Positions 857 to 39,596 of a stretch of DNA of 57,117 nt are shown here, piece by piece. Numbering within the stretch: the stretch's first letter is position 1; the number at the start of each line of letters is the position of its first letter. The stretch comes from an uncultured Planctomycetota bacterium (GTDB taxonomy: Bacteria; Planctomycetota; UBA11346), in NCBI GenBank assembly GCA_903902515.1, contig CAIUVD010000253.1, positions 1 through 57,117 on the forward strand, given 5' to 3'. Both the position numbers and the translations under genes were made by a program. A model generated the notes under the pieces. That model was given only the letters and a program-made list of their open reading frames with translations. It was not told the DNA's origin and searched no databases.

Positions 857-3800
857 TCATTGAGATTTTCTACGTCGAAACCCTATGAATACGCCGGTCA
901 ATATCATAGCTAGACCAACCCCAGAACCGCAGCCTCCTCCACCATCGGCCAACAGTCGACCATCAGAGTCCGCCACCTGGTCGCTGATAGTTAAATCAAC
1001 GGAAGCACCGCGCATTTCGCCCGTTACATCAATTCGTATAGACTCGTCTTCCTCGTGAATTCCATCGTTTACGACCGCAACAATGAACGATATCGAAGAC
1101 ATTTCACTTTCGGAATCGGGAAGCGTCACAGATACAGGAAGCCCCGAGTAGTCATCACCCGCTGTGGCAGTACCACTCGCCGAGATCTTATAGGTGGTTT
1201 TTTTCGGCCCAGTAACGGTGACCACCGCCGTTGAAGACGGCTCATTCAAGCTACGAATCGAGGTCGTCACCGATACGCCCATTTCATCATCAAGTATTCC
1301 TACCTCACCGGAACTTTGGGCTCCCAGTGCGTAACCCTCACCGATCGTCAACATCACCGTTACAATTTCCGAACCTTCACGGAGCCGATCATCAACAGGA
1401 ATGACCCGCAGTCGGGCCACGTGATCCAGCCCGCTCTCCTTGGCAGGAATTGAGAATGTCAGAACACCCGACGTAGCGACGGCCGGGGTTACCTCACCGC
1501 CAGCAACGACTTCCAAGATGTAATCAACCTCAAAAGTAGCAGTCCCCGCCACCGCCATAGCCACCACGATGGGCCTCTTTATCACCCTATCACTCCCGAT
1601 CACCAACTCGCCCCCACCGGCCGAAACGGAATCTTCGTCAATGGTAAATGACGATGATGTAAATTGCAACGTCGGTTCATCATCGTGTATACTCACGGTA
1701 CCTGAGGTGGTGCCACCCACGACATAACCTGCGCCGGCCATGAGGATCACCGTCACGGACTCTTCCCCTTCGCCAAGAAGATCGTCGATAGGCGTTACCA
1801 TGAGCTTCACCTCCTTACTCGTCACCGAGGGGGGGAACACCAATGCACCGACCCCCAAGGGCGCTATAAACGAGGCCCTCATGCCATCGATTTCCGTCGT
1901 CAAGACGTAGTCGACATCTAAGGTCGCAGACCCCTCTACTCGAAGAGCAACCGTCACAGGTTGTGTTAGGAAATGATCACTCACGACAGCCAGCTCGCCC
2001 ACCTTTGGAGATAACGGATCCTCAGAAGCAATGGCCCGGGAGGATATCAAGCTCAACGTTGGCTCATCATCGTGAATCGTCACGGTGCCCGAGTCCGCCG
2101 ACCCGATCATGTAACCCGTTCCAGCAGCCAAGGTCACTTGAACAACTTCTTCCCCTTCAGCGATGTCATCATTGAGAGCGGTCACCAGAAGCCGAACCTT
2201 TTGGCTCGTCGCTGACTCGGGAATCTCCAACGAACCCACCCCACGAGATGTGACAACTGGTGATGTCACACCACCCACCTCCACGCTCAAGATATAGTCG
2301 ACATCTATGGTAGCAGTACCCGCCACCATGACGTTGAGGATTAAGGATTCCTTAACGGCCGTGCCGATACCAATCATCAACTCACCCAAAGAGGAGGTTA
2401 CGGGCGCCTCCGACACGGCGGACGTGGGCGAAAGGAAGCTGATCGTCGGCTCGCTGTCCTCTTGAATGGTCACCGTACCGGAATTCAAGGGGCCAACCGT
2501 ATAACCTTCACCAGAATTTAGGGTCACCGTCATGAATTCGTGAGGCTCCGCTATCGCATCGTGGATGGGCGTTAATCGAAGCACCGCGAGCCGACTTAAC
2601 TGAGTAACGGTGGGGGGTATCACCAGCGAACCCGTGCCTGACGTTATGAGGACGGATGATGACGCCCCACCCACAATGACACTCAAAGCGTAATCGGTGT
2701 CGACACTGGCAGTGCCCCCGACCAAGAAATTGATGGTCGTAGCATGTTTTATGGCACCGGCACTGCCGATAATTAATTCACCAACCATCGGACTTACCGG
2801 ACTCTCTGACGCAATGGCCGCGGACGAAGTAAAACTTAGGGTCGGCTCATTATCTTGAATGGTCACCGTTCCGATTTTTCTTGGCCCGATGGCATAGCCT
2901 ACACCAGCAACCAATGCCACTCTGACCTCTTCCGAGGGTTCACCCACGGCATCATCAATGGGAACCACCACGAGCCTGACCTCCTGGGCTGTTGCCGATG
3001 CAGGGATGCTGAGGGAACCGGAACCCGATCTGACCGTAACCAAGGAGCTCACCCCACCCACAACCATTTTTAACTGATAATCCGCATCTATGCCTGCACT
3101 GCCCGAAACTGTGAAATTCAGTGTCACGGGCCTCTTCACAGGGGTATTGCTGCCAATGATCAACTCGCCAACCCTTGGTGGATCCGAATCTTCAGAGACC
3201 ATGGAGGAGGAGGATTTGAATCCGAGGATCAATTCATTATCTTCAATGGTAATCTCCCCCGAACTCGTGGCCCCCCTCCAATAACCAACACCCGCATTCA
3301 GGGACAACAGCACGGACTCATCCGACTCTATTTCGGTATCATCAAGGGGCGTTACCTGCAACACGGCAAGCCGATTCAATTGCACAGCGGTGGCAGGAAT
3401 GACAAAAGAACCAACTCCCGAGGCGATGACAACCGACAACGTTTCGCGTCCCGTGATCACTCTCAGGAGATAATCAGCGCCAGGAACCGCAGTGCCTGAC
3501 ACCGCAACATGGACCGTCATTGGCCTCTTGATCGCCATGTTACTGCCAATGATCACCTCACCAATCCTGGGCGACGTCGGATCTTCAGATGCCGTGGACG
3601 ACGATGAGGTAAAATTCAGGACCGGCTCATCATCCTGAATGTTGACTGTCCCAGAACTCTCACCACCCAAGCCATAGCCAGTTCCTGTCATCAAGGTAAC
3701 CGTAACGGTTTCCTGACCCTCACCGATGGAATCATCATTCGGCACAACGAGGATTTTTGCAACCTGGTTCGTGGCCGAGGCAGGGATAACGAACGACCCC

Positions 3801-6364
3801 ACACCTGATGCGATGGCCAGCGTGGAAGTCACCCCACCCGTAACGACTTTGATTGCATAATCCATACCTGTCGTTGCCGTACCCGCCAACGAGACTCGCA
3901 CCGTAAGAGGAGACCTTAAAAAGATGCTGCTTCGAACGGCTAGCTCTCCCATAGCAGAGGGCGCCGGACCCTCCTTTGCCGTGCCCGATGACACCGCCAG
4001 GGAAAGAACGGGTTCATTGTCGGCAATTAAACCCGTCGCCGTAGAACGTGTGCTGTCGAGCACATATACGGCAAAGTCAGTATCCTTGATTCCGAGCACC
4101 ATGGATTCTGATGGCTCTACCACTCCATCGTCCATCGGCGAAACACGAAAGATAACCTCATTTTTATTAGCCGGAATGATCACCTGCGTAGGCGGAACAC
4201 CATAATCCGCCCCAACCGTTGCCGTACCCCCATCGATCTTCAGCTGGACCACAATGGCTCGATCCAGAGGACGACCATCGGGTCCATTATCGTAAGCGAC
4301 TTTAAAGACAATCGGGGCACCAGATTCACTCCCATCAGACACCTTGGCAATTCTTATGGCAGGCTTCACCTTGGGAGGAATCGGATACAGTAAGTTGTCG
4401 ATGTGGTTCGCGCCGCTCACGCGAAGGCGAGCATAGTCGATCACCTTCGGATCTTTGGTGATACTCGCCAGCATCGTCAATGCATCTCTCACATCCGATG
4501 GAACCGGACTAAAATCACCATTATACGGCCAGGGATTACCGTCAATGAACGGCATGAACCACTCGACCGCAACTTGAAGCGATCGACCATCGTCAAGCTT
4601 TAACTTATAAAGATCATCACCGTTGACACGCGCCAAAATCATCATTTGAACCATTGCATTAATGGTAAATGATGCGTATCCAGCTCCATCCGGTCGATCC
4701 AACTCTCTTGGCAAACGACCATCTGGTTGAATCTGCTTGCCAATACGCTCATTAATAAATCGGCTGATTATATCCCGCCTTTCTTCCATATCACCAACAT
4801 AGGCCGCGCCTGCAAATGCCTGCAAATCAAAAAGAACTCCGTGATTGTTATCGGCATTTTTTTCCTGGATGCCAAAATCGCTCGTATTCAGCCACTCAAG
4901 GTAGGATCTGAACCAAACACGCAAACCGATACGATCCTTCAGTGGAATACAGTTTTCTCGTTCAAGGAGAGCAACGGCACTCAACATAGACACAAAACCA
5001 CGAGCATCGATGATTCCGTAACGACTGCCACTGCCCTGCGTTCTACTATTCGGGATAAACTGGGCGTGCTGTAAATGCGGATTCATTCTCGTCGCGGGGT
5101 CGTTGAACCAAACGCGCAACTGCTTTACGGCAGCTTCCGCATATTTTGATTCACCGCCAAACCACCAGGCCATGACAAAGGTTTCGATCCGATCGGTCAT
5201 TTTCTTTAAACGTGGATAATCCGATTGATTGATCATAAACGTGTTTTGATCTCCATCACGATTCACCCACGCTTTTTCCGCATCGGAAGCTTGGGGCGGA
5301 TCTGATATGAATGGCCACGAGTATGTCGCAATACTCACATAGTTATGGGGATCTGCGCTGGGCGAAGGAACGTGGACGCCACCAGGTGTCATAAATCGAG
5401 ACTTGTGGGTAACGGCCACATCAGGTTCACTCAAGGCACTTGCGGCTTTTGCCAACAGGGCCCTGAGCGCCAGATCCGCTTCACCTTCAGTGCGGGTGCG
5501 AGTCCTCGTTGCCACGAGGGTGGTCAAGTCCCACGCCGCAACGGGTGCGACATTGAGCCTTACCATTTTTTCAGCAAACCGCTCACCTAGTTTTCGGGCG
5601 GAAATCGCATCGAAATGTACATCATCGGTATCAACTTTTCCGAAGCCACTTGAAGAAACCACCTCATAGTTTCTTATGCTTCCTACCATTCCTTGGAGAA
5701 CGGCATTAAAATTATTCGTCGGTATTTTCTGGAAATTAATGAACCATGCCAACTCACCCGCAATAACGGGAACCGAGGGGCTATCTAGATCATTTCTTAA
5801 TCTCGCAACAAGCTCAGTAAACTTGGCCGCATAGTCGACGGGCGTACCCCGATCTGTCTCTCCCTGATGCCAAAGAATGCCCTTTAAGACACCGCGCTTA
5901 AGCGCTTCCTTAGCACGCACCATCGCATCATCATAGGGACGCGTTCTGCCGGAGGCACCCACGAGTGGATGTGTTTTTCCTGGCTCCCAACTCAGTATCG
6001 AAGAACCACCGACAGCACACGGAATGAGTCCAATGCGAATCCCTGGATCTGCGTCAGCCAGAAGCTTTCCAAAGGTGAGCCCTGGCCCTACCCCAGCTTC
6101 TGGACGATCAAAATGCAGCGGATCCTTGGCAAGCACCCATTCTTGCGCTTTGGAAAACATGAAAACTCGTGGGTGTGTTGTTGTGCTTTCGGCATCAAGA
6201 ACACCACGTCCCGACATATTGGACTGACCAAGCAAGAGATAGAGATGGAATTGAGGATCCACATCCTCCCCATGAGCCCATCCCTGGTGGAAAATTATTA
6301 GGGCCATTAGAGAGAAAACGAATCTTGATGTAATCTTGATAGCGCGATTGGCCAACGACGACAT
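857..6364 (-). CDS. Secreted multidomain enzyme: SGNH/SASA (CE6-like) acetylesterase + alginate-lyase-family (PL5/PL38-like) domain + about 9 Calx-beta-like repeats + CGxG C-terminal sorting signal
   Basis: Signal peptide; SGNH motifs GQSNM, GILWHQGE and DDVHF; lyase motifs HNYVSIATYSWP, RDG, MNPHLQHAQ, GIID and NNHG; repeats with D..EG.E...V.L..G.GY..G....G.V.I.DDE; tail GGGGCGSG-TM-RRRK. ATG 6364 follows AGGGGG. Confidence 0.88.
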   Translation of the reverse strand: MSSLANRAIKITSRFVFSLMALIIFHQGWAHGEDVDPQFHLYLLLGQSNMSGRGVLDAESTTTHPRVFMFSKAQEWVLAKDPLHFDRPEAGVGPGLTFGKLLADADPGIRIGLIPCAVGGSSILSWEPGKTHPLVGASGRTRPYDDAMVRAKEALKRGVLKGILWHQGETDRGTPVDYAAKFTELVARLRNDLDSPSVPVIAGELAWFINFQKIPTNNFNAVLQGMVGSIRNYEVVSSSGFGKVDTDDVHFDAISARKLGERFAEKMVRLNVAPVAAWDLTTLVATRTRTRTEGEADLALRALLAKAASALSEPDVAVTHKSRFMTPGGVHVPSPSADPHNYVSIATYSWPFISDPPQASDAEKAWVNRDGDQNTFMINQSDYPRLKKMTDRIETFVMAWWFGGESKYAEAAVKQLRVWFNDPATRMNPHLQHAQFIPNSRTQGSGSRYGIIDARGFVSMLSAVALLERENCIPLKDRIGLRVWFRSYLEWLNTSDFGIQEKNADNNHGVLFDLQAFAGAAYVGDMEERRDIISRFINERIGKQIQPDGRLPRELDRPDGAGYASFTINAMVQMMILARVNGDDLYKLKLDDGRSLQVAVEWFMPFIDGNPWPYNGDFSPVPSDVRDALTMLASITKDPKVIDYARLRVSGANHIDNLLYPIPPKVKPAIRIAKVSDGSESGAPIVFKVAYDNGPDGRPLDRAIVVQLKIDGGTATVGADYGVPPTQVIIPANKNEVIFRVSPMDDGVVEPSESMVLGIKDTDFAVYVLDSTRSTATGLIADNEPVLSLAVSSGTAKEGPAPSAMGELAVRSSIFLRSPLTVRVSLAGTATTGMDYAIKVVTGGVTSTLAIASGVGSFVIPASATNQVAKILVVPNDDSIGEGQETVTVTLMTGTGYGLGGESSGTVNIQDDEPVLNFTSSSSTASEDPTSPRIGEVIIGSNMAIKRPMTVHVAVSGTAVPGADYLLRVITGRETLSVVIASGVGSFVIPATAVQLNRLAVLQVTPLDDTEIESDESVLLSLNAGVGYWRGATSSGEITIEDNELILGFKSSSSMVSEDSDPPRVGELIIGSNTPVKRPVTLNFTVSGSAGIDADYQLKMVVGGVSSLVTVRSGSGSLSIPASATAQEVRLVVVPIDDAVGEPSEEVRVALVAGVGYAIGPRKIGTVTIQDNEPTLSFTSSAAIASESPVSPMVGELIIGSAGAIKHATTINFLVGGTASVDTDYALSVIVGGASSSVLITSGTGSLVIPPTVTQLSRLAVLRLTPIHDAIAEPHEFMTVTLNSGEGYTVGPLNSGTVTIQEDSEPTISFLSPTSAVSEAPVTSSLGELMIGIGTAVKESLILNVMVAGTATIDVDYILSVEVGGVTSPVVTSRGVGSLEIPESATSQKVRLLVTALNDDIAEGEEVVQVTLAAGTGYMIGSADSGTVTIHDDEPTLSLISSRAIASEDPLSPKVGELAVVSDHFLTQPVTVALRVEGSATLDVDYVLTTEIDGMRASFIAPLGVGALVFPPSVTSKEVKLMVTPIDDLLGEGEESVTVILMAGAGYVVGGTTSGTVSIHDDEPTLQFTSSSFTIDEDSVSAGGGELVIGSDRVIKRPIVVAMAVAGTATFEVDYILEVVAGGEVTPAVATSGVLTFSIPAKESGLDHVARLRVIPVDDRLREGSEIVTVMLTIGEGYALGAQSSGEVGILDDEMGVSVTTSIRSLNEPSSTAVVTVTGPKKTTYKISASGTATAGDDYSGLPVSVTLPDSESEMSSISFIVAVVNDGIHEEDESIRIDVTGEMRGASVDLTISDQVADSDGRLLADGGGGCGSGVGLAMILTGVFIGFRRRKSQ
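975..4363 (-). repeat. About nine tandem Calx-beta-like protein repeats (about 130 aa each) within the large enzyme gene
   Basis: Units end in ADNE, QDDE, EDNE, QDNE, QEDSE, HDDE, HDDE, LDDE and ISDQ. Each contains a GTAT.G.DY-like motif. Confidence 0.85.
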
Positions 6365-6858
6365 AAAACCCCCTAGACTCAAAGAAAATGACCGAAATGA
6401 TCGGTTATTGGTTGTTTGATTTCGCCCGCGATGTCATCGGCTATTTATATTAACTTGAAATCCCATTTCCTAGTCATTTATAAGCAGGTCTATGCCATTA
6501 ATGACCATCTTCACATTGGAATTATTTTTGTTATCCTTAGATGATGTTGTGCCGTTTCCCTCTCTATAAGGTCATTTCCCAGACTCTTGTCGTAGTCTGG
6601 AACCCAGATCATTACGAATGACGCTTTTGAACGCCACGATGAGGATCTCAACCTCTTCGACTTCACGACCTGATATCATTCGCTGATGGCCATTTTCGAA
6701 CACCTGGAGCCCGAAAAAATCCAACGATGAACCATGAAGGGCTCTCATTTCCCTCGTATTCAAGCCGCCTGAGGGCGCCAAGCCCGCGCATCCCCCTTCG
6801 GTACATCGCCGCGATTATTTTTGCGGTAAAATACCCTGACCACTTATGGCATCAACCT

Positions 6859-7518
6859 ATGCACCATACCTCATTTAAATGCAAGCCACTGATCCACAAT
6901 GGCTTCACTCTCATCGAGCTCCTAGTGGTGATTTCCATCATCGCCGTCCTTGCAGGCCTATTGCTCCCGGGGGTCAACCTCGTCCGTGCCAATGCAAAGA
7001 CCTCCAAGTGTGCCAATGCACAGCGCCAGGTGGTGCTGGCGTGTTACGGGTACGCAAATGACCAAGCCGGTGGGCTTCCAGCAACCCGGGTAAACAACAT
7101 GTATTGGTATGAGCTGATTGAGGACTACCTCGAAGGAAAAAAGAGCAGCTACTACCAAGGAACCGTGATTCGTGGCTGTCCGGAATTCACCTTTGACCTT
7201 GCCGACACCACCGCCTTCTCCTACGGCACCAACACCTTCCTTGCCTACGGTGGCGGTGGCAACTCGAACAACCTTCACAACCGGATTGGCGGAAGCTTTG
7301 GAGCTCTCAACTTTACCGAATTCAATGCCGGCACAGTGACGAAGCAGACCTCACGCGTCTATTTCGCGGATACCGACGCTTTCTGGACCGGATCCTCTCC
7401 ACCGGTCACTGACCTGGAGGTACGGCACCGTGGTAAACTCGTGGTCACCTTTGTGGATGGCCATGGCGGTCGACAGACCCTCGCGGAGGCCACCGCAGGC
7501 GTCGTATCCCCTCCGTAA
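6859..7518 (+). CDS. Prepilin-type N-terminal cleavage/methylation domain protein with H-X9-DG motif
   Basis: NG|FTLIELLVVISIIAVLAGLLLP N-terminus and C-terminal H-RGKLVVTFV-DG. Clear paralog of 68..709. Start taken at ATG 6859. Confidence 0.92.
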   Translation: MHHTSFKCKPLIHNGFTLIELLVVISIIAVLAGLLLPGVNLVRANAKTSKCANAQRQVVLACYGYANDQAGGLPATRVNNMYWYELIEDYLEGKKSSYYQGTVIRGCPEFTFDLADTTAFSYGTNTFLAYGGGGNSNNLHNRIGGSFGALNFTEFNAGTVTKQTSRVYFADTDAFWTGSSPPVTDLEVRHRGKLVVTFVDGHGGRQTLAEATAGVVSPP

Positions 7519-21753: not shown

Positions 21754-24700
21754 ATGACTTCTCCCCATTGCGCCCCCTGGTCGAACCTCCTTCTGCGGCT
21801 GGTGGCCGGGCTGTTGCCCTGGCTCGTGCTATCCTCGCAGTCGCACGCGGCGACCGGTCAGCCGGATTATGCTCAAGCCATTACCGTTAATGACGATGGG
21901 ACGCTTACCTACGTTCCCAATCCGCGCGGGGACATGGTTCCGGATTTCTCGGCGGTAGGGTGGCGAAATGGGGATCAACCACTGCCCGGCCAACCCGGCG
22001 GCATCACCGTGCCGGTGGTCGTGACCCTGGACCCCGGCACGGGCGACCAGTCGAGCCGTATCCAGGCGGCCATCTGGCGGGTTGCCCAACTACCCCTGGA
22101 TGCGAACGGTTTCCGGGGGGCCATCCTCCTGAAAGCCGGGACCTGGGAGATCAATCGCACCCTTCTCATCGACCAATCGGGTATTGTTCTGCGGGGCGAA
22201 GGCCGGGACCCATCGGGGGTCCATACGCACCTCATCGCCACGATGATCACCAATGACGGCTATACCGGCGTCAGCCAGGGTGGATCCATGATCCGGGTCC
22301 GCGGCAACTTTGACGATACCCCGCGTTTCACCTCCGATGCCACCAGCATGGTGAATACCTCTCCCCAGACCTGGGACATTGTCGGCCGGGTGCCGGTGGG
22401 CGCGAAGTCCATCACGGTGTCATCTATTCCGACCCTCCAGGTCGGGGAGTTGGTCCGGATCCACCGGCCGGTGACCCAAAACTGGGTAGATGACGAGGGA
22501 CTGGCCTTCAACACCAGCGCCTACATCAGCGCCGGCCAAAACCAGGTGGCCCATCGTCGGGTCGTCAGCGTTGACGGGACCACGATCCACCTCAATGCAC
22601 CCATCACGTTGGCCATCGATCCGACGTATGGGGGCGGCAAGGTCCTCAAGGTGACCGCGGAGGGGTACATCCGTAACGTGGGCATCGAAAATCTCTACGC
22701 GACATCGGCTTACGCCAACCCCATGGACCAGAACCATGCCTGGAATGTGGTGGCCATGGAGCGTACCGAAGACAGTTACGTCCAGGACGTCACCGCCCGC
22801 TATTTTGGCTATGCGCTCTGCTACATCACCACGACGGCCCGCCAGATCAGCGTCGAACGGTGCCAGATGATCGATCCAGTATCCTGGGTTACCAATGGCA
22901 TGCATGAGAGTGGCCGCCGGATCCAGGATGCGGGGGGTAACCGCTATGCGTACTTGAATAATGGTGAACTGACCCTGGTCCGCGACAGCTACTCCCGCCA
23001 CTCGCGCCATGAGTTCCCGACCAGCTGGTTCCTGTCGGCCGGCCCAGCGGCGTTTGTGGACTGTCTGGGGGAAAACGGCCACAACGAATCCGGGGCCCAT
23101 ATTTATTGGACCACGGGCACGCTGTGGGACAACGTCCGGATGGAAAGCCTGCAGAACAAGCGGGAACGTCCGACGGGCAATAATGTCATCTGGAACTGCG
23201 TCCTCTACGGCGGGCCGAACATCGTTGAAAACGCCGTGACCGCGGTGAATTGGGCCTTCGGTTCGACCACCGCCAGCGGCGGGGCGGTCACCTTTTCGGC
23301 CTCCAATCCCCCCGGTGGCGTGCCAAGGAATCAGGGCGGTGAGATCTTCTCGAACGGCACCCGGATGAGCGTCCGCAGCCTGCACGATGCTCAGGTGGCA
23401 GCGCGACGGCTGGCCCAGGGCCTGACCTACACCCCCCGCACCACCCACCAGCGACCGGCCTTGGTTCCGATCCTTCCCACCATCACACCCTACGATGCGA
23501 CCGGCAAGGTCGGCACGGCGTTTTCCTATGCCGTTAAGGCCGATCCCATGCCGATCCGACTCAGCGGGGGCACCTACTACACCGCCACGGGACTTCCGCC
23601 CGGCCTCAGTATCACCACCGGGAATAATAAGACCTACGGCTACATCACCGGCACCCCAACCACCTCAGGCGACTACACCGTGACCCTGGTGGCCATCAAT
23701 CAGGACGGAAGTTCGACGCCAACGCCGGTCACGTTCACGATCCTATCGAGCACCGATAGCACCACCTTCCCCTTGAGTCTGAGCCTGCGGGCGGACTACC
23801 CGGATGGGTTCCGTTACGACACCATGGTCGTGACCCCCATGACGGCCAACTACGACCGCAACGGAGATCTCGATTTCACCAATAATGTCGATCCAGCCCT
23901 CGATGAGACGGGGGTGGTCGTGCCGGTGACGGTGGTGGCCTCCCACCAGTTCCCCGCCCTGCGCATCCCGATCACGGTGACCTACAATGGCTCCGCCACC
24001 CTGCCCACGGACCCCGGTTCCTACACCGTGACCGCCACGTCGACCAACCCCCTCTATCCGGGCACGGTGACGGACACGTTGATCATCAAAACTCCAGGAT
24101 CGATCTCCCTGGGTAATCTCACCAGGACGTACAACGGCTCCGCCCAAGCCCCCAGCGTCACCACCACGCCCGCAGGGTTGACGGTCGATCTCGTCTATGA
24201 AACGCCCGACGGCCCGACCACCACCGCCCCGACGCTTCCGGGCGCCTACACCGTCCGGGGCAGCATCCGGGACCCGGCCTACGCGGGAAGGACCACCTCC
24301 AATTCCACGGATTTGCGGCTGTTCGTCATCAACAAAGGCAGTGCCACCATCACTCTGGGGTCCCTGAGCCAGACATGGAATGGCTCCGCCCGTACACCGA
24401 TCGCTACCACCGTTCCTGCAGGCCTGACGGTCACCTATGCCTTCACCAAAGACGGGGTGCCGGCGGCGGCCATTGAACCCGGCACTTATGCCGTGACGGC
24501 CACCATCGATTCCCCCCTCTACGCCGGCACCCGCACTGGCACCCTGACCATCGCCAAGGCCCCTGCCACCATCACCCTCGGTAACCTGACCCAGGCCTAT
24601 GCCGGCAGTGATCTCGTTCCGACGGTGACCACTGTTCCCCCAGGCTTGGCGGTCGTGATGTCGTATAACGGTGGGGCTCTGACGACAGTTCAGCTTCCCG

Positions 24701-27540
24701 GAACCTACTCCGCCACCGCCACGATTAATGACCCCCACTACCAGGGCGCCAACTCCTCCCCGTTCACCATCACCAAGATGACCGGCCAAGTGCTGCTGGA
24801 AACGGCCGACCTGGCCCAGACCTATGATGGAACACCCCGAGTGGTCAGGACGACCACCATCCCGCCAGGATTGGCGGTGGTCCTTCGCTATAATAGTGCT
24901 GAAAACGTCACCAATGCAGGCACCTACGCGGTAAGCGCGACCCTCAACGACCCCCTGTACCAAGGCACGTCGACCCCGGCGAACCTCGTGGTGGCCAAGT
25001 TACCCACCACCATCACCCTCGACGATCTGGCTCAGGATTTCACGGGCGGTCTGCGACCCGTGACCACCTCGACCATCCCCTCGGGTCAAACGGTGGTCGT
25101 CACCTATGATGGACGTTCGACGGTGCCCTCGGCCGTCGGCGTTTATGCCGTCAGCGCCACCGTCAACACCACCAATCACTTGGGGACTGCCACCGGGAGC
25201 CTGATGGTGCGGCCGGTGATCACCACCATCAGCAATCTGTTCGGCAGCGTCGGCCAAGCCTTCACGGCCACCATCACCGCCACCGGCAGTCCAACAGCCT
25301 TCGGCGCGAGTTCCCTGCCCAGCTGGCTGACCGTGAACCCGAGCACGGGAGCCCTGACCGGCACCCCGACCACCGCCGCGTCGGTGACCATCACCCTCAC
25401 GGCCAGCCGCACCACCACCGGGGGCACCGCCACCGGCTCCAAGGAGGTGACCATCAGCGTCCTGCCGAGTGGCCAGCAGATGACCTGGCCGACGCCTGGG
25501 GCGGTGCCCTACGGGACGCTCCTCGGGTCTTCCCAGTTGAACGCCACCAGCACCGTGGCCGGTAGTTTCTCGTATGACCCGCCGGCGGGAACCCTGTTGC
25601 CGATCGGCAGTCAGACCCTGCGAACCACATTCACCCCCACGGACACCAGCACCTACAGCACGGTGCAGCAGACGGTGACCCTGACCGTGACCAAGGCGCC
25701 AGTGACCGTGACGGTGGCCAATGCCAGCCGGGTATATGGAGCCGCCAATCCGACCTTCACCACCAGTGTCAGCGGCCTCGTCGGGACGGATGCCCTGGCC
25801 AGTGTCACCCCCACGACCACGGCCATCGCGACCTCGGCAGCGGGCACCTACCCCATCACCGCTACCGCCCCGAGCCTGACCAGCGGTTCCGCCAGCAACT
25901 ACACGGTGACGGTCGTTCCAGGAATTCTGACCGTCAGTCCGGCACCGTTGACGATCCGGGCCGGGGATGCCACCCGGACCTACGGCAGCGCCAATCCCGT
26001 ATTCACCAGCACGGTCAATGGCTTGGTGGGCGCGGACACCATCAGCTCCGTTTCCATGACCACCTCAGCCGGGGCCAGCACGCCGATCGGCCCCGCCTCG
26101 ATTATCCCGGGGACCCCGACGTTCGCGGTTGGCCGGGCCAGCAACTACGCCATCACGGCTGAAAATGGCACGCTGACCATTACCGCCGCACCCCTCACCG
26201 TGTACCTGGACCGTACCGTCTACCGGGTGCAGGGCGGATTGGATGCCACCATCAATCCCAAGGCCACCGGACTGCAGGGGTCTGACCGGCTGGCAGGAGC
26301 TGACATCGCCTATCCGGCCCAGGATGTGGCCGTGGGGTCCTATCCCTTGCCCCTCAGCAATGCCCGTCTCGCCGTCGGCTCCCTGGGCAATTACACCATC
26401 TCCTATTCGGCCGGCACCCTGGTGGTGGTGGATCCCCTGAGCGTCACCATCCCGGTGATCACCTGGGCTACCCCCTCAGCCGTCACCTACGGCTCCGTGC
26501 TGGGGACCTCCCAACTGAATGCCGTGGCGGATGCCGCGGGGACCATCACCTACGACCCCCCCCTGGGAGCCTTGCTGGGAGCGGGCACCCAAACCCTGGT
26601 CGCCACCTTCACCCCCGACAATCCCGCCCTGGTCGCTCCGGCGACCACTAGCGTGAGGCTGGAGGTGCTGCCCACCCCCCTGCAGATCACCGCCCTCGCC
26701 GCCAGCCGGGTGTACGGTGCCACGGATCCCGTCTTCACGGCTCGCCTCACGGGTCTTCAGGGAACAGATGCCGCCACCACGGCGGTCACGACCAGCACGG
26801 ATGCCAGCACTCCAGTGGGGCTCCAGGTCGGCAGCCTCACGCCGACGATCGTGCAGTTCACGGTCGGCAGCCTGAGCAACTACGCCCTGACCACGGTCCT
26901 GGGGGATCTCCAGATCACCCCGGCGAATCTGACGATCACCGCCCGGGATGCGACCCGCGTCGTCGGGACTGACAATCCGGAATTCCCCTGCCTGGTCACG
27001 GGACTAGTCAGCGGGGATACCCTCGAACCGATCCTGGCCACCACCACGGCGACGGTGGACTCGGTGGCGGGGGCCTATGCCCTCACCCCGTCGGAACCTC
27101 GTTTCCTCACGGGAAGCGCGGGAAACTACCGGATCACTCTGACCAACGGCCGCCTGGCCATCACGGAGGCGATGCCCGTAATCACCTCGGCCCTGGTCAC
27201 GGGCATCGTCGGCCAAGCCGTGCGACACCAGGTGGCCGTCTCGTCCACCACCCGGTGGTTCAGTGCCAGCGGATTGCCCGACGGACTGACCATCAGCTCC
27301 ACCGGGTTGATTGCGGGGATCCCCTCCACTGCAGGACTTTTCCTGGTGACGGTGGATGCCCAAAACCAAGCCGGCCGGGGCAGCGGCACGATTTCGATCC
27401 TGATCACCGAGGAGGCCTTCCCCGTTGGAACCAGCGAGGATTCCTCCAGCACCCCTGCCTCCTGCGGGTCCGGCACCGCTCTGGTGGGCTTGATCGGGCT
27501 GCTGGGCCTGGCCCTGACGGGCCGGCGGCGGCGCGGCTGA
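21754..27540 (+). CDS. Secreted beta-helix (pectin-lyase-fold-like) protein with putative-Ig and MBG-like repeats and CGxG C-terminal sorting signal
   Basis: Signal peptide; GDMVPDFSAVGW, IQAAI, GAILLKAG, GIVLRGEG, NVGIENL, GNRYAY and GTLWDNV; Ig repeats (ATGLPPGLSI...ITGTPT) and MBG-like repeats (YNGS...P...G.Y.V.AT; ASRVYGAANP.FT); tail ASCGSG-TM-RRRR. Confidence 0.82.
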   Translation: MTSPHCAPWSNLLLRLVAGLLPWLVLSSQSHAATGQPDYAQAITVNDDGTLTYVPNPRGDMVPDFSAVGWRNGDQPLPGQPGGITVPVVVTLDPGTGDQSSRIQAAIWRVAQLPLDANGFRGAILLKAGTWEINRTLLIDQSGIVLRGEGRDPSGVHTHLIATMITNDGYTGVSQGGSMIRVRGNFDDTPRFTSDATSMVNTSPQTWDIVGRVPVGAKSITVSSIPTLQVGELVRIHRPVTQNWVDDEGLAFNTSAYISAGQNQVAHRRVVSVDGTTIHLNAPITLAIDPTYGGGKVLKVTAEGYIRNVGIENLYATSAYANPMDQNHAWNVVAMERTEDSYVQDVTARYFGYALCYITTTARQISVERCQMIDPVSWVTNGMHESGRRIQDAGGNRYAYLNNGELTLVRDSYSRHSRHEFPTSWFLSAGPAAFVDCLGENGHNESGAHIYWTTGTLWDNVRMESLQNKRERPTGNNVIWNCVLYGGPNIVENAVTAVNWAFGSTTASGGAVTFSASNPPGGVPRNQGGEIFSNGTRMSVRSLHDAQVAARRLAQGLTYTPRTTHQRPALVPILPTITPYDATGKVGTAFSYAVKADPMPIRLSGGTYYTATGLPPGLSITTGNNKTYGYITGTPTTSGDYTVTLVAINQDGSSTPTPVTFTILSSTDSTTFPLSLSLRADYPDGFRYDTMVVTPMTANYDRNGDLDFTNNVDPALDETGVVVPVTVVASHQFPALRIPITVTYNGSATLPTDPGSYTVTATSTNPLYPGTVTDTLIIKTPGSISLGNLTRTYNGSAQAPSVTTTPAGLTVDLVYETPDGPTTTAPTLPGAYTVRGSIRDPAYAGRTTSNSTDLRLFVINKGSATITLGSLSQTWNGSARTPIATTVPAGLTVTYAFTKDGVPAAAIEPGTYAVTATIDSPLYAGTRTGTLTIAKAPATITLGNLTQAYAGSDLVPTVTTVPPGLAVVMSYNGGALTTVQLPGTYSATATINDPHYQGANSSPFTITKMTGQVLLETADLAQTYDGTPRVVRTTTIPPGLAVVLRYNSAENVTNAGTYAVSATLNDPLYQGTSTPANLVVAKLPTTITLDDLAQDFTGGLRPVTTSTIPSGQTVVVTYDGRSTVPSAVGVYAVSATVNTTNHLGTATGSLMVRPVITTISNLFGSVGQAFTATITATGSPTAFGASSLPSWLTVNPSTGALTGTPTTAASVTITLTASRTTTGGTATGSKEVTISVLPSGQQMTWPTPGAVPYGTLLGSSQLNATSTVAGSFSYDPPAGTLLPIGSQTLRTTFTPTDTSTYSTVQQTVTLTVTKAPVTVTVANASRVYGAANPTFTTSVSGLVGTDALASVTPTTTAIATSAAGTYPITATAPSLTSGSASNYTVTVVPGILTVSPAPLTIRAGDATRTYGSANPVFTSTVNGLVGADTISSVSMTTSAGASTPIGPASIIPGTPTFAVGRASNYAITAENGTLTITAAPLTVYLDRTVYRVQGGLDATINPKATGLQGSDRLAGADIAYPAQDVAVGSYPLPLSNARLAVGSLGNYTISYSAGTLVVVDPLSVTIPVITWATPSAVTYGSVLGTSQLNAVADAAGTITYDPPLGALLGAGTQTLVATFTPDNPALVAPATTSVRLEVLPTPLQITALAASRVYGATDPVFTARLTGLQGTDAATTAVTTSTDASTPVGLQVGSLTPTIVQFTVGSLSNYALTTVLGDLQITPANLTITARDATRVVGTDNPEFPCLVTGLVSGDTLEPILATTTATVDSVAGAYALTPSEPRFLTGSAGNYRITLTNGRLAITEAMPVITSALVTGIVGQAVRHQVAVSSTTRWFSASGLPDGLTISSTGLIAGIPSTAGLFLVTVDAQNQAGRGSGTISILITEEAFPVGTSEDSSSTPASCGSGTALVGLIGLLGLALTGRRRRG

Positions 27541-33594: not shown

Positions 33595-33595
33595 C

Positions 33596-34069: not shown

Positions 34070-34208
34070 GGGATCTCGTACCGCGCTTCGTGGTCGGCAT
34101 GAGGCCGACGGTCCAGCTGCCAGGGATGGCTGGCTGACATCACTAGCATAGGCGCCACGATGGCCGCCGTTTGACGGCTCACCGGGCGGATCAGCCTACA
34201 CCACTTCT

Positions 34209-37200
34209 TTAGAGAACCCTCCGCCGGCGCCATGCGAGCAACGGAAGGACCAACCCGAAGAGCAGAGAGGCCAATCCATTTCCTGCCCCACAGGAACCGG
34301 ATGCAGAGTCGGGGACGACTTTGCCCTCTCGCGCGGCATCGAAGGTGAATCCCTGCTCGCGCATCACGGCACCAAAGGAGGTTTGGATCTTCACCTGGAC
34401 CGGGCCGGCAGCCTGCGTCGGAGTGACGCAGGTGCAGGTCTGCTCATCCACGAGGACCACCTGGGTTGCGGGAAGGTCACCAAAGGTGACCGAAGGCACG
34501 TCAACGAACTGGCCACCCGTGATGGTGACCATCGTTCCGCCTGTCGAAGGTCCGCTGGCAGGATGCAACGTTGTCAAAACAGGAGGACCGACGTAGCGAT
34601 AGCTCGCCGCCGCCTGAGCCGAACCCGTCGTTATCGTCACGGGCACAATGCCAGCCGTCCCAGCAGGCGTCCGGCATTGCACCGTGGCCGCATCAATCAC
34701 CACGACGTCCGTCGCAAGTGCCCCTCCAAAGCGCACCTCAGATGCTCCTGCCAACCCGGTGCCCACCACCGTCACGAGGGTTCCCCCCGCCGCGGCTCCC
34801 CGATCCGGTGATAGCTGGGTTACCGTAGGGCCTGGAGTCTCCTCGGCGACATACGCAAAACCATCAGCCTTGGTGAAGACCCCCTGGGTCGTGGTTAACG
34901 CCACATGCACTGCACCCGCAGCGTGAGCCGGCGCCGTGCACGTGAGCGAGGTTGCGCTCACGACCGTGACATTCGCCGCAGCAATCCCACCAAAAGTCAC
35001 CGCCGTGGTTCCGGTCAAATTGGCGCCCGTGATCGTGACCGTTGTGCCGCCAGATGCGCTGCCGCTGGCCGGACTCAACGATGAAATGGTCGGCGCTGCA
35101 TCAATGAACAATGACGCCGACTTCAGCATCTGTCGATCTCCGGCGACCAAGAAGAAGATTTTATACCAACCAGGATTCACGGGCACATCTTGGCTCCACA
35201 TGGATCCGATCTTTGGCAATCCACCATTGGCTGGGTCGCCTTGATATGCTCTGTAGAGTTTCATCCCACACACATTGCCGATGAGGTCGTTGAAGATATC
35301 CGGCTCCACATCCTGCGGCGATCCCAAATGGTTCAAAACATACTGACCTTGAACTTCGGCATTGAATGCGGTTGGCACAACAGGGACATAATCATAAATT
35401 TTATTGGGGGTAAGACGATTCACGGCGATTGGCATGTCGACAATTCTCGAAACGACCGGGGAGGTGCTCTGGGGCTCCTCCGTTATGATGTCTTCTTGCG
35501 ACTCGCTGTCGCCAAAGGACCCGAAACGCCCATCAATGGAGTTGTTAACAACCGATATTCCAGCCTCCGCATCAACATCCATGACTGCTCGTATGGTCGT
35601 GTTCCCCACGCGGAACTCGGAATCCGATATCCTAACGATAGGGAGAATTCCAGCCGTGGTATCCTTGCATTGAATGATGGACAGAAATCGCTTCGATCTT
35701 CCGGAATTCTGGGTGCATGAAATATTCATAGGCAACGGCGGATTGGGATCGTTGCCAAAATTGGTAGGCCTAACAAGGAATCCGGTAGTGGTTGATAATT
35801 CTATTGGCGACGACCCGAAAAATGCAATTTCCGCCGCATAAGGAACCACTCCGCGTGCAGCCGCCACAGAATATCCGTAACGATTATCTCCGGTTCTCGA
35901 CCACATTTTAGTTTTATCCGTGTGAAATCTTGCGGTCCAAGACTGCCGCTCTTCCTCGCTTTCCAAGTCGTCATAAATGACAATTAGGCCATCGTGCGTG
36001 TTAAGAATATGCCTATCAAATTTCTGTAATTTTTTATCGCCAAAATACAGTAATTTCTCCGCTTCAGTATATCTATTGTATAGCCATGCATTACCTAGGC
36101 GATAGCTATACTTGGCATCGCCTTTAACGTACGAAAGATTTCTTCCGGTGTAAAACCGTGCAATTCTTCCGTAGCTATCAGATCCAAATCCCTGGCCGCT
36201 TTCTCCGTCAATGACAATCCCATTATGGGCACGCGTTGACTTGTAGTCCCAGTATGAATGGGCGGCATTATCGTAATAGCCAACGGACCAGAATATCCTT
36301 TGATTTTTATATGCCAAGTTGAAGCAATTTTGGTTTGCGTGTGCATGGCTATACGCCCCAAACGGGCTCGACCTAAAAAAGAGAGCCAAATCACTCGAAC
36401 TCGTCAGGGCCCGAGTGTGCATGGTGACCTCGCCAATCTCAGGTGCGCATATCGCCTTCGGCAATTCACTTTCTTGCAGCATGGCCGGGAGAGGTTCATT
36501 GTTGATGTTCAATGCAATTTGCTGCATGCCGCTTAGCCACTGCCCCCTCTTCCGGACAAGCTCGCCAGCATAAGAATCACCATTGGAGTAAAACACAAAA
36601 TCAGCCAGCTTATCTCCGGTCGATCCAATTCTTTCATGCATGTCTCCAAATCCATTCGACAATGACGACGGATACGAGTTATAAAGAAGATACTTCGCTG
36701 TGTTTCTAAACCATGGAGTCCCCGATAAATCTGCCCCCAACGACTTTAAGTGAACGGCAATGTCAACCAATCCAATTGCTTCGAGTCCAAAATAACCGAG
36801 ACCTTGGGACCACCCACCGCCATTGCCGCTCGATGTGGGAGCTCTCGCCAAATAGACCCCTACCGAGTATTCAAAGCATTTTTTCATGTATTCCGGATTC
36901 TTGTTTTTCAGTGCCATTGCAACCATCATCAAGCACGATAGCTCCGTTTGCCAAAAGTGATTATCCGCCATCACCGCCTCACGATTATTGGGCCATGCAT
37001 TATACGCACCCTGGATCCAGTTTGTCATATAATTTTCATACCGCGCTCGCTCTTCGTCGCTCGATTCGTTGTAGGATGCGTCATACAATTCAGCCATAAC
37101 GGAAATTGTAAGACCGAGCACAAATCCACCAATAACGTTGGTGCCCGTCCCATTGCCGATATTCTTTTCGACCTCAGCCATTCTCCTCTTGGCCTCGTCC

Positions 37201-37865
37201 ATGTATTTTTGGTCGCCGCTCGCCAAATATCCGTAGATAAGCTCCCTGATTTTCCATGGTTGCTCTCCTGTGCCGGTAACCGGAGAGGCCATCGCTCTAT
37301 CTGCAGCTTCCGTAACTTTATTTTTAGAAGCAACCATTGAAGATGCGCGATTTCTAAAATCAGACAATGATGATCCCCAGGTGGAGAGAAATGGCTTTTC
37401 GTCGGGGATGTTTTCAAACAAGGCTCCAGGATTAATCTCTGGATACTCTACGGTTTTCTCCGTTATCCTAAAGGGAATCGTTTGACCAGTGACCACCGTC
37501 CCGTTCGCCGAAATGACCTTTAATCGCCAAAACCACGTCCCTCTTTGGAGCCTTATGTCTGGAACATAAAATGCATGCCGCGTGACACTCGAGTTCAGAG
37601 TGATCTCGGTAAAGCTTGGATCCTGAGAAACCTCCACTTGGTACCGCGCGCCAAGTGTGCGTGGCCACAAAAAGGCCGGCGGATTACGTGCCGATTCGTC
37701 ATTTAATCCGGGAGACATTCCCGTGCGCCAAACGAGATGATAAACCGCGTCAGGACGTTCAACTGCTTCAGAAAGACCGCTCAAGATCGTTACCGACGCC
37801 AAAAAGACGAGGGATGCGACAAGTCGCCCACTCGCGATCGTAAGAAGAAAAATACGACTAAACAT
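34209..37865 (-). CDS. Secreted DUF4962/heparinase II-III-like polysaccharide lyase (PL15-like) with three IPT/TIG domains and CGxG C-terminal sorting signal
   Basis: Signal peptide; NPPAFLWP, DNHFWQ, GGWSQGLGY, GFGD, FRSSPFGAYSHAHANQN and TRAHNGI; three PT...L.P..G...GGT.VT..G IPT repeats; tail GSCGAG-TM-RRRR. Confidence 0.88.
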   Translation of the reverse strand: MFSRIFLLTIASGRLVASLVFLASVTILSGLSEAVERPDAVYHLVWRTGMSPGLNDESARNPPAFLWPRTLGARYQVEVSQDPSFTEITLNSSVTRHAFYVPDIRLQRGTWFWRLKVISANGTVVTGQTIPFRITEKTVEYPEINPGALFENIPDEKPFLSTWGSSLSDFRNRASSMVASKNKVTEAADRAMASPVTGTGEQPWKIRELIYGYLASGDQKYMDEAKRRMAEVEKNIGNGTGTNVIGGFVLGLTISVMAELYDASYNESSDEERARYENYMTNWIQGAYNAWPNNREAVMADNHFWQTELSCLMMVAMALKNKNPEYMKKCFEYSVGVYLARAPTSSGNGGGWSQGLGYFGLEAIGLVDIAVHLKSLGADLSGTPWFRNTAKYLLYNSYPSSLSNGFGDMHERIGSTGDKLADFVFYSNGDSYAGELVRKRGQWLSGMQQIALNINNEPLPAMLQESELPKAICAPEIGEVTMHTRALTSSSDLALFFRSSPFGAYSHAHANQNCFNLAYKNQRIFWSVGYYDNAAHSYWDYKSTRAHNGIVIDGESGQGFGSDSYGRIARFYTGRNLSYVKGDAKYSYRLGNAWLYNRYTEAEKLLYFGDKKLQKFDRHILNTHDGLIVIYDDLESEEERQSWTARFHTDKTKMWSRTGDNRYGYSVAAARGVVPYAAEIAFFGSSPIELSTTTGFLVRPTNFGNDPNPPLPMNISCTQNSGRSKRFLSIIQCKDTTAGILPIVRISDSEFRVGNTTIRAVMDVDAEAGISVVNNSIDGRFGSFGDSESQEDIITEEPQSTSPVVSRIVDMPIAVNRLTPNKIYDYVPVVPTAFNAEVQGQYVLNHLGSPQDVEPDIFNDLIGNVCGMKLYRAYQGDPANGGLPKIGSMWSQDVPVNPGWYKIFFLVAGDRQMLKSASLFIDAAPTISSLSPASGSASGGTTVTITGANLTGTTAVTFGGIAAANVTVVSATSLTCTAPAHAAGAVHVALTTTQGVFTKADGFAYVAEETPGPTVTQLSPDRGAAAGGTLVTVVGTGLAGASEVRFGGALATDVVVIDAATVQCRTPAGTAGIVPVTITTGSAQAAASYRYVGPPVLTTLHPASGPSTGGTMVTITGGQFVDVPSVTFGDLPATQVVLVDEQTCTCVTPTQAAGPVQVKIQTSFGAVMREQGFTFDAAREGKVVPDSASGSCGAGNGLASLLFGLVLPLLAWRRRRVL

Positions 37866-38912
37866 GATGAAGCTTCTCCTGGGTGAGCCCCGGTAAGCGG
37901 TGTAAGGTTGCCGATGGATTCACGGATGATGAGTCATGGTTTCGCAATGACGGCGAGGATCGGCACGTCGGGAAGCCTCTGTCCCTGACGTGCCGAGACG
38001 GCAGCCAGCAAGGGCTTCGGCGTCATTTCCATTTGCGGTAAATGTGCCATAGCCGACGATCGAAACCGCTGTTGTTTGAGTCAGCAAGGTTCCATAAAAT
38101 TCACCGAGCGCAGCATTCGGCACAGACCACACATGGGCTGTCAGGCTTGCGATACGCACGGGAATACCTCCAGAGAAAGTAACGTTCACTTCGCTTTGTT
38201 TACGCGAGACAGCAGGCCATTACGCTCGAAAATCGCCTGCTGGTGACCTGATCAGGCTATAGGAGGGGGCATTAATGATCTCATCGAAGTGTTGTGCAAT
38301 TTACCTGCATACCCCCCAAGCACCCTCGCTTTCAACGATGCCGAACGTGGGAACCTGGCGGTGCAGATAGCGCAGGCGGAACCTGACGATTGAGACGCCG
38401 CTCCTCATCCCCATGTCGCGCAGCAACCGTGCCGGACGTGATCCATGACGATCGGGCGAGGAACGCCTCGTTCATCTTGAGGCTTGAGCTATTTTGCACG
38501 ATCACTGGCCGAGATCGGGTGGCCAGATAGTCCTCTTGTGCCAAGTGCGGATCGGCGGCTCCAGAAGCAAACAAGAGGCTCTGTCCGGCCGATTCCACGG
38601 AACTCTACGCGGCGTGCTTGCGTCAGATACCGAGCGGTCCACCCCACGCTGACGCTCCAGGCTGCAGGGGTGGATGGGAGGCTCACTTCACGTCACGGCA
38701 TTCTGTTTTTCGCACGTCGCTGCAGAGATGCACCGCGACGGAGCCCAACCAGGCTGGCGAAGGGGATTAAGCAGGAGTGAACTCGCCAAGACATCGTCTC
38801 AGGGGCAAATGCCTTCATGGGGCTGGGCTCTCCGTGGACGTCATCGAGTGCCCCCACGGACCAAACAACAATGCCGTGTGCTCAGGTTCGGCATGTATTC
38901 ATAGGAGGAATC

Positions 38913-39596
38913 GTGTCGGTACGGATCTTGGTGATTCTTCTCATGATGACTCACCTCCTCGCGGTGGATGTCCAATTGATCGTCGGCGGGATGCCGTCGT
39001 CAGGATCAGCGACATATACCTGGAGTGTGCTGTCCTTTCCCGATGGGGGGACCCCACCAATCCTGGCAACGACGACCACAACGACGGGCACCAATCGAGC
39101 GACCTTCGATCCGTCGGCACTTCCCGGCACCTACTGGTTTCAAGCCTCCATTCAGGATCGTTTTCCCAATCCCGTCCTAGCGCGCACGGCGGTTCAGGTG
39201 TCCAGACCACAGCAAACATCCTTTCCTGGGGGCGGGTCTCAGGTGATGACCTACCAGCCTTCGGCAATCCCGGATCTGGATCCAGGCGCAACGACCACGG
39301 CACCAGGGATGCGAGTCGTCTACCGTATTAAGGAAGGGACGGCGGCGGTGCTCGTCGGTCAGCGTCTTCGGCCGGTGGGGAGCGGGGCCGTGGTCGTTGA
39401 GGCGGATGTGGAGGACCATAGCCCCGTGCGGTACCGCGCTCATCCCGCGCATAAAACCTTTATCTTTACTGCTCAAGCCAATGACCGCATTGGGGATCTA
39501 GATAGCGATAAAGGCACTGGTGGGTGTGGTAGTGGCATGGGCGTCATGCTCCTGTTCGCCCTCCTGAGTCTCGTCCGCGTAAGGAGATCTCTGTGA
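38913..39596 (+). CDS. Small secreted Ig/PKD-like protein with CGxG C-terminal sorting signal and no catalytic domain
   Basis: AGGAGG at 38903-38908 before GTG 38913; 17-aa signal peptide; ATYTWSV...PGTYWFQASIQD; tail GGCGSG-TM-RVRRSL. Confidence 0.8.
   Translation: MSVRILVILLMMTHLLAVDVQLIVGGMPSSGSATYTWSVLSFPDGGTPPILATTTTTTGTNRATFDPSALPGTYWFQASIQDRFPNPVLARTAVQVSRPQQTSFPGGGSQVMTYQPSAIPDLDPGATTTAPGMRVVYRIKEGTAAVLVGQRLRPVGSGAVVVEADVEDHSPVRYRAHPAHKTFIFTAQANDRIGDLDSDKGTGGCGSGMGVMLLFALLSLVRVRRSL

Follow-up and report, generated by a model that had tools for sequence, protein, structure and literature searches.

What do four secreted proteins with unrelated bodies have in common when they end in almost the same way? 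The question is raised by a stretch of 57,117 nucleotides (hereafter the window), which is contig C253 of the draft genome of an uncultured Planctomycetota bacterium (genome G000; 3.93 Mb in 338 contigs, GC content 65%, 91% complete). An initial annotation of the window had noticed four short C-terminal tails, each with a Cys in a Gly-rich setting, a hydrophobic helix and an Arg cluster, and had proposed that they form a lineage-restricted sorting signal. For two proteins of this genome, the closest homologues that bear a name are likewise assigned to the Planctomycetota. All four tails and their open reading frames (ORFs) are present where they had been placed, and the bodies that carry them are mutually unrelated, with four different architectures in Pfam. 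The best explanation, which we regard as rather probable, is that the tails belong to a genome-wide family of 29 ORFs and are handled by a mirror image of the lipoprotein pathway, in which an extra Lgt takes part. The tails and the cargo proteins of the window are as follows.

857..949, minus strand: tail 1, ADGGGGCGSGVGLAMILTGVFIGFRRRKSQ; stop codon at 857-859; 39.2 bits with tail model A2
857..6382, minus strand: cargo 1, 1841 amino acids (aa); signal peptide, SASA esterase, alginate lyase, Calx-beta repeats and tail (Pfam); low gene GC content (52%); C-terminal end GGGGCGSGVGLAMILTGVFIGFRRRKSQ
27445..27540, plus strand: tail 2, SSTPASCGSGTALVGLIGLLGLALTGRRRRG; the sole window tail above a curated cut-off
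21754..27540, plus strand: cargo 2, 1928 aa; signal peptide, MBG_3/MBG_2/He_PIG repeats, adhesin-like, and tail (Pfam); C-terminal end PASCGSGTALVGLIGLLGLALTGRRRRG
34209..34310, minus strand: tail 3, DSASGSCGAGNGLASLLFGLVLPLLAWRRRRVL
34209..37865, minus strand: cargo 3, 1218 aa; signal peptide, DUF4962 and heparinase II/III, three TIG domains and tail (Pfam); C-terminal end SGSCGAGNGLASLLFGLVLPLLAWRRRRVL
39507..39596, plus strand: tail 4, DKGTGGCGSGMGVMLLFALLSLVRVRRSL; Synerg-CTERM 19.6 bits against a cut-off of 22.5
38817..39596, plus strand: cargo 4, at most 259 aa; without a Pfam family; an inner Met at about 38871 begins a signal-peptide-like start; C-terminal end TGGCGSGMGVMLLFALLSLVRVRRSL

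The whole genome was searched with a regular-expression scan and then with a hidden Markov model (HMM) built from 22 tails. The tail model finds 26 ORF ends at E<1e-3 and gives no match in the reversed-sequence control; with three weaker ends that carry the motif, the family comprises 29 tail-bearing ORFs, five of which are truncated by contig ends. Their consensus is [G/S]-G-C-G-x-G, followed by 15-20 uncharged residues and an Arg/Lys cluster. The Cys is invariant and single (positions -6 to +7) in 29/29 tails, and Gly stands at position -1 in 25 of them, at +1 in 27 and at +3 in all 29. The first Arg or Lys follows the Cys at a distance of 15-20 residues, two to five of the next six residues are basic, and the 20 residues that precede the motif contain on average 7.4 Gly/Ser and 2.1 Asp/Glu. 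When 23,523 full-length stop-to-stop ORFs were searched, all 20 HMM domains at E<=1e-3 ended within 16 residues of the C-terminus, with no internal matches (the last 45 residues are 24% of the residues searched). At the other end, a simple heuristic recognizes a signal-peptide-like N-terminus in 22 of the 24 tail ORFs with a complete 5' end. Sixteen further cargo proteins were scanned; they include a PL8 lyase, an alginate lyase and two subtilases, and the rest are F5/8-type lectin, MBG, TIG, Calx-beta and Ig repeat proteins, with one that has no family. This pattern is the mark of a sorting signal and not of a shared domain. The proposal of a lineage-restricted signal with an invariant Cys on unrelated secreted cargo was thus borne out at genome scale; the accompanying remark that the cargo consists mostly of polysaccharide lyases fits two of the four window proteins but only four of the 20 cargo proteins scanned.

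How far does the signal extend beyond this genome? With model A2, every one of the 24 genomes of the same family (f1) is matched at E<=1, and in 18 the number of matches is 6-23. Model A2 proved too genome-specific, finding one tail per genome in a second family (f53) and giving unreliable negatives, and a merged model, A3, was used instead. Among 301 genomes of the phylum that are at least 85% complete, those with multiple A3 matches are restricted to f1, f53 and one genome of family f31. Besides our own genome, 12 of 17 f1 genomes have several matches and one genome, G018, has a single match; in f53, 11 genomes have 3-12 matches. Family f1 is the only one in the order to which the window's genome belongs, so that f53 falls in a different order. 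At E<=1e-3, tails are found in 20 of the 28 genomes of the order and in eight of its 13 genera, and both sampled genomes of genus g7 and both of genus g10 are negative at this threshold.

To which kind of signal do the tails belong? Very likely they belong to a class already known, the tripartite sorting signals with a Cys (MYXO-CTERM, GC_trans_RRR and Synerg-CTERM); they are a planctomycete form of MYXO-CTERM, the surface-sorting signal of myxobacteria, and, as judged from sequence, the class extends to the Planctomycetota. The initial annotation had seen in the tails a distinct sorting family, to be given up if they scored above the cut-off of an existing model. Tail 2 (27388-27537) does so, with 19.1 bits against a cut-off of 15.85 for GC_trans_RRR (TIGR03382), a model now named MYXO-CTERM sorting domain, and the other three window tails fall below all NCBIfam cut-offs; the nearest misses are the Synerg-CTERM score given above and MYXO-CTERM at 15.3 against 20. 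One of the four window tails is therefore over the cut-off of TIGR03382 and none over that of TIGR03901. In pooled output at E<=1, GC_trans_RRR matches seven of the 29 tails, MYXO-CTERM six, Synerg-CTERM five and GlyGly-CTERM one; on these pooled scores, one to seven of the 29 can pass TIGR03382, and the best TIGR03901 match (E 0.0063) is under the cut-off, judging by the relation between bits and E-values in the f53 set. The nearest curated models are TIGR03382, TIGR03901 and Synerg-CTERM, and the view of the tails as a separate family finds no support. The f53 genomes carry a variant tail, GGGC[AST] followed by a helix and RRRR, with several tails per locus, and four of nine such tails pass curated cut-offs (TIGR03901 27.1 and 27.9 against 20; TIGR03382 22.7 against 15.85; Synerg-CTERM 30.9 against 22.5).

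The published architecture of Cys-containing signals, as far as it is set out in the accessible part of the Haft preprint (10.1101/2023.06.07.544157), fits these tails and differs in detail. With MYXO-CTERM/GC_trans_RRR, the substrates of the myxosortases MrtX/MrtC/MrtP, they share a tripartite tail at the extreme C-terminus with a Gly-flanked invariant Cys, an uncharged helix and an Arg cluster, dozens of unrelated secreted cargo proteins per genome in a many-to-one housekeeping layout, and passing scores on TIGR03901 or TIGR03382 for one window tail and three of nine f53 tails. According to the same part of that preprint, MYXO-CTERM is often GCGC and is reported only from the Myxococcota and Bradymonadales. 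The present tails, in contrast, have a single Cys in 29/29 cases, a fixed Gly at +3 and a home in the Planctomycetota; most of them are under the cut-off, no CPBP protein reaches the Mrt_core cut-off, and an extra Lgt paralog is associated with them, for which we found no report in connection with MYXO-CTERM. Synerg-CTERM (TIGR04564, with MrtS) is likewise a short Cys-containing tripartite signal and is the top model for window tail 4, but its helix has an invariant Pro (10.1101/2023.06.07.544157, accessible part), whereas the helix of our tails has no conserved Pro column, the phylum differs and the top MrtS score in the genome is 36 against 130. The same source places GP directly after the Cys of CGP-CTERM. 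That feature, or a DP motif before a Leu-rich helix, together with MrtA or MrtJ, characterizes CGP-CTERM and JDVT-CTERM, unlike our 29 tails, in which G or A stands at +1 and P never at +2; neither family is among the 25 most matched by these tails.

The Cys-less signals are more distant. GlyGly-CTERM (TIGR03501, with the rhombosortase TIGR03902) has a comparable Gly-rich signature, helix and basic cluster, and sits on type II-secreted surface enzymes, but its model matches one of the 29 tails (E<=1), our genome has no rhombosortase over the cut-off, and the Cys-less pairs found in family f1 occur independently of the CGxG tails. PEP-CTERM shares the tripartite architecture and the many-to-one logic, and exosortases are present in some relatives; the tails, however, lack a PEP motif, the model matches four of the 29 weakly and in the helix part only, and our genome has no exosortase (PF09721). 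In the literature, supplementary tables lying outside its scope, we found no description of a planctomycete Cys tail or of an Lgt paralog tied to such signals.

Which enzyme, then, could act on the invariant Cys? An acyltransferase that modifies the Cys of MYXO-CTERM has been postulated, the enzyme itself not being identified, and "Lgt-like" is the published guess (PMC11980579, accessible part). Because the published model postulates such an enzyme, we counted Lgt genes (by PF01790) in the order's 28 genomes, which all belong to family f1, and compared them with the tails at E<=1e-3. Of the 20 genomes with tails, 18 carry a second Lgt (Lgt2; 155-185 bits), and another, G010, has it only as two fragments. 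Among the eight genomes without tails, seven carry a single Lgt, and the remaining one, G006, combines the paralog with weak tails (seven matches at E<=1 with A2, two at E<=0.01 with A3), and G018, with its single tail, also has the paralog. Elsewhere, three f53 genomes have three Lgt homologues each, and the tail-less genomes G025 and G027 have one and two, respectively.

A maximum likelihood tree of 30 Lgt sequences places 18 of the 19 f1 Lgt2 proteins in one clade (94/94), split by a branch with 100/99 support from the primary Lgts of our own genome, G025 and f53. On the primary side of this branch, the additional f53 copies group by themselves (98/96), and therefore the two paralogs arose independently. 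The Lgt2 of G018 and the main copy of G027 are long branches beside the f1 Lgt2 clade.

Gene neighbourhoods connect both paralogs with tails. In genus g6 of f1 (G316, G237, G317, G209 and G194), the gene immediately upstream of Lgt2, in the same orientation, is a Cys-tail gene; it encodes a protein of about 850-1010 aa that ends in K/R-C-G-[FL]-G-x-G, a helix and RLRRR, and the gap to Lgt2 is 18-46 bp in the first four of these genomes (start codons as assigned in our analysis). In G008 a Cys-tail gene is followed by kinase/FGE, beta-barrel-like and Pro-rich genes and then by Lgt2. In f53, two Cys-tail genes lie directly upstream of the extra copy, LgtB, at 49-109 bp, in all three loci (G170, G216 and G282, from three genera). 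No tail gene was found at six primary Lgt loci, nor in 410 kb of metagenome sequence from 80 loci with the Lgt2-type motif. We also observed a conserved string of genes upstream of Lgt2 (L141:2-5177 in G003, in the same order in L137, L143, L142 and L154), which encodes a Ser/Thr kinase joined to an FGE-sulfatase domain, a protein of some 400-550 aa whose C-terminus is beta-barrel-like (a weak autotransporter match) and one of about 275-340 aa that ends in a run of Pro; downstream of Lgt2 lies the gene for ribosomal protein L19 (rplS), identified with Pfam in G003 only.

The Lgt2 of our genome (G000:C217:4497-5507) scores 168 bits on PF01790 against a cut-off of 24.9 and has seven hydrophobic segments; compared with E. 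coli Lgt (5AZB) it scores 44 bits, and the primary copy 207. In E. coli Lgt, R143 and R239 are essential, the signature motif binds the lipobox and H103 is the proton acceptor (PMC8048626, accessible part). The Lgt2 clade keeps the equivalents of both Arg residues, the Arg of GRxG and that of WRF being invariant; the His of the H103-GGL motif is replaced by Tyr, Phe or Leu, and the signature motif G142-G154 has become G-R-x-G-C-x-x-N-G-C-C-x-G, in which the named residues are invariant.

These observations can be arranged into a pathway. The N-terminal signal peptide would route the protein through Sec, and the C-terminal helix would then retain it in the cytoplasmic membrane, the Arg cluster pointing inwards and the Cys lying at the outer face. 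Lgt2, a member of the diacylglyceryl transferase family, would lipidate this Cys in a mirror image of N-terminal lipoprotein modification, and an intramembrane protease would cleave distal to the Cys and free a peptide of helix and Arg cluster; candidates for the protease are a fusion of an ABC permease with a CPBP domain (C231) and a short rhomboid (C172). The lipid-anchored enzyme or adhesin would finally reach the cell surface, probably via a type II-like system built on a secretin; the genome contains secretins and GspF-type platform genes. As in the lipobox pathway (Lgt, LspA), an outer-face Cys preceded by small residues stands beside a helix with a positive cytoplasmic end, and an Lgt-family enzyme is linked to it. 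Unlike in that pathway, the helix follows the Cys, in an inverted topology, position -3 lacks a Leu, the Lgt-family enzyme concerned is a divergent paralog, and cleavage must fall C-terminal to the Cys. The possible Cys lipidation that the initial annotation had mentioned gains support from the association with the Lgt paralog. We see even chances that the paralog is the lipid transferase of the tail Cys. The fuller proposal is more tentative and, in our estimate, falls somewhat short of that: dedicated Lgt paralogs may be the missing lipid transferases of Cys-containing C-terminal signals, recruited independently in two planctomycete orders, partly co-encoded with their substrates and working with a protease outside the curated myxosortases.

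Several observations weigh against this pathway. The tailed genome G023 (83% complete) has no second Lgt, and Lgt copy number outside f1 and f53 was covered in two genomes, G025 and G027. Because the genomes of the family are related to one another and the five genera without tails may form a single clade, the co-occurrence of Lgt2 and tails may reflect as little as one evolutionary event. Direct adjacency of a tail gene and Lgt2 within f1 is limited to one genus, and our own Lgt2 has no tail gene within 5 kb (downstream of it, an ORF of 1505 aa runs off the contig end, its C-terminus lying beyond the contig). The GCxxNGCC motif of Lgt2 occurs in both Lgt-like genes of the tail-less G027, and the Lgt2-type motif matched more than 595 metagenome stretches; the sequence type of Lgt2 is for these reasons not tail-specific, and Lgt2 may be an ordinary second Lgt. 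On the side of the protease, the best Mrt_core (NF040914) score is 39.1 in our genome and 30.8 in f53 genomes (range 21-31 bits), against a cut-off of 100; going by such scores, a defining partner of MYXO-CTERM is missing or very divergent here. Lipidation, cleavage and surface exposure are all steps that we infer from sequence.

The initial annotation had expected an intramembrane processing enzyme of the tails' own and had seen no convincing one in the window. The window indeed contains none, and the expected enzyme was not identified in the genome either: curated myxosortases, rhombosortases and exosortases are all missing from it. Multi-helix proteins encoded near the 29 cargo genes (within 8 kb) form no obviously recurrent family, as far as coordinates and sizes tell. 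One alternative to the pathway with Lgt2 is that the tails are served in the classical MYXO-CTERM manner: a CPBP (Rce1-like) glutamic protease, the C231 fusion, would cleave them, the housekeeping Lgt would lipidate them, and the second Lgt would be an unrelated accessory. The accessible part of the Haft preprint attributes each of the four known signals with a Cys to CPBP enzymes, whose cleavage site follows a modified Cys (10.1101/2023.06.07.544157), and MrtX has been shown experimentally and functions in E. coli without a dedicated transferase (PMC11980579, accessible part); both points speak for this alternative. Our genome encodes three CPBP proteins: the C231 fusion, a weak one on C200 and one on C114. 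The C231 fusion (ABC-2 permease/CPBP, G000:C231:5915-7816) reaches 393 bits on NF041647, against a cut-off of 435, its CPBP domain is intact, with the EExxxR, FxxxH and HxxxN motifs kept, and a single long frame of this type is the sole CPBP found in the near-complete, tail-rich genomes G008 and G024. Such a long CPBP-bearing frame (745-908 aa), however, occurs in 23 of 24 family genomes, tailed and tail-less alike, and thus shows no specificity; in five f53 genomes, 24 of 25 CPBP-bearing frames have 206-460 aa and one has 677 aa, and none of six f53 CPBP loci holds a close counterpart of our own CPBP proteins. All CPBP proteins stay under the cut-offs of Mrt_core, MrtS and MrtJ, and in 14 control genomes the Mrt_core matches are likewise under the cut-off. 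The most myxosortase-like protein, C114 (G000:C114:2824-4259; L004:1426-2861, minus strand), scores 50.5 against 75 on MrtJ, and it is C114 that gives the Mrt_core score of 39.1; it is a low-GC gene with a frameshift at an A run in the draft assembly, so that an N-terminal ORF of 368 aa is followed by a frame of 131 aa with the EExxxR, FxxxH and HxxxN motifs. We rejected C114 as a protease for the tails in general: the gene carries the frameshift, five relatives in the genus lack its N-domain, which is weak in three of 24 family genomes, and the tail-rich G008 and G024 have no second CPBP. The classical alternative also leaves the adjacency of Lgt paralogs and tail genes in two orders unexplained, and we consider it rather unlikely. 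The gene neighbourhood of the C231 fusion was uninformative; a probable ABC ATPase ORF precedes it (G000:C231:5133-7816, L037). Exosortase was discarded as a candidate as well, as it is missing from our genome and occurs in six of 24 family genomes without relation to the tails.

A further alternative, one that we hold to be improbable, is a Cys-bearing variant of GlyGly-CTERM cut by a rhomboid protease; in its favour, the helix of the tails has a Gly-rich start, as rhomboid substrates do. Its candidate is the sole rhomboid of the genome (C172; 209 aa, G000:C172:7909-8535), for which rhombosortase is the only NCBIfam match. Orthologues (E<=1e-30) occur in 20 of 24 family genomes, and G009, G014 and G018, from which it is missing, have no tail or one. 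C172, on the other hand, scores 43.5 bits on TIGR03902 (cut-off 84), no differently from the other rhomboids of these genomes that fail this cut-off (23-53 bits). The rhomboid is also encoded in G011 and G016, which lack tails, and f53 is rich in Cys tails, yet no f53 genome matched at E<=1e-12. Twelve genomes from other families, all tail-less, hold second-tier homologues, and at 15 such loci the rhomboid has no tail gene next to it. The GlyGly-CTERM model, as said, matches one of 29 tails, and the invariant Cys is left unexplained. Rhomboids of about 236-240 aa that adjoin hisS were set aside as a housekeeping type. True or near-true rhombosortases do occur in the family, over the cut-off in G021 and G022 (99.7 and 91.9 bits) and close to it in G018 (69.9), each beside a protein of 660-745 aa with a Cys-less GG tail, of which the G018 protein, the one scanned, is VIT/vWA-like:

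L054:11206-13817 (G018): rhombosortase and Cys-less GG-tail pair
L074:5598-8446 (G022): rhombosortase and Cys-less GG-tail pair
L075:9725-12597 (G021): rhombosortase and Cys-less GG-tail pair

These pairs are classical GlyGly-CTERM systems in this planctomycete family, in the dedicated arrangement described by Haft and Varghese (PMC3237569, accessible part). Their presence lends the rhomboid alternative some weight, as does the position of the sole CGxG-tail gene of G018, 2.3 kb from such a pair; the rhombosortases themselves were dismissed as the tail enzyme, since they belong to the Cys-less VIT/vWA pairs. Another view, that the tails are plain, uncleaved anchors that tether their proteins to the cytoplasmic membrane, with Gly-Cys-Gly serving helix packing or disulfide formation, would agree with searches of the genome that found no dedicated protease and with a cleavage step that is itself deduced. 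It sits poorly with a single invariant Cys, fixed Gly neighbours and a fixed distance to the Arg cluster on 29 unrelated proteins, with the resemblance of the tails to the experimentally cleaved MYXO-CTERM (on the accessible part of the published account), with polysaccharide lyases, proteases and adhesin-like cargo that need substrates outside the cell, and with the linkage of tail genes to Lgt paralogs. We judge it very improbable.

The surroundings of the cargo genes in the window deserve a description of their own. The alginate-lyase cargo gene is flanked on both sides by genes for pseudopilin-like proteins:

68..760, minus strand: protein with a prepilin-type N-terminal methylation motif, pseudopilin-like; adjoins cargo 1
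6727..7518, plus strand: another N_methyl protein, pseudopilin-like; flanks cargo 1 on its opposite side

Two low-GC islands (window positions 1-8000 and 34000-42000; 48-58% against 65-73% in the surroundings) contain three of the four tail-bearing genes and a tail-less heparinase-like gene (39593-42391), whose start is overlapped by the stop codon of cargo 4. Within cargo 3 the N-terminal catalytic part has a GC content of 48%, and the part with the TIG domains and the tail 58%; its closest catalytic relatives, from Bacteroidota and Akkermansia, are 28-31% identical and have neither TIG domains nor a tail. The islands look like acquired enzyme modules joined to native repeats and a native tail. 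A search of genome contigs for cargo orthologues gave no evidence of tail swapping (bodies 28-31% identical, tail-less). Elsewhere in the window, an ORF of 429 aa (32305-33594) resembles, by eye, a fused LpxC/FabZ protein and adjoins an ORF that is LpxD-like by eye (31256-32308).

What would the tails mean for these bacteria? Cys-containing C-terminal signals have been tied to CPBP proteases only recently, and this lineage supplies, through co-occurrence and two independent gene neighbourhoods, a concrete candidate for the postulated acyltransferase. Current models miss most of these tails, so that annotation stands to gain from their recognition. The tail decorates polysaccharide lyases, subtilases and adhesin-like proteins, the enzymes behind polymer degradation in these bacteria among them, and it helps to predict which of these enzymes are tethered to the cell surface and which are released.

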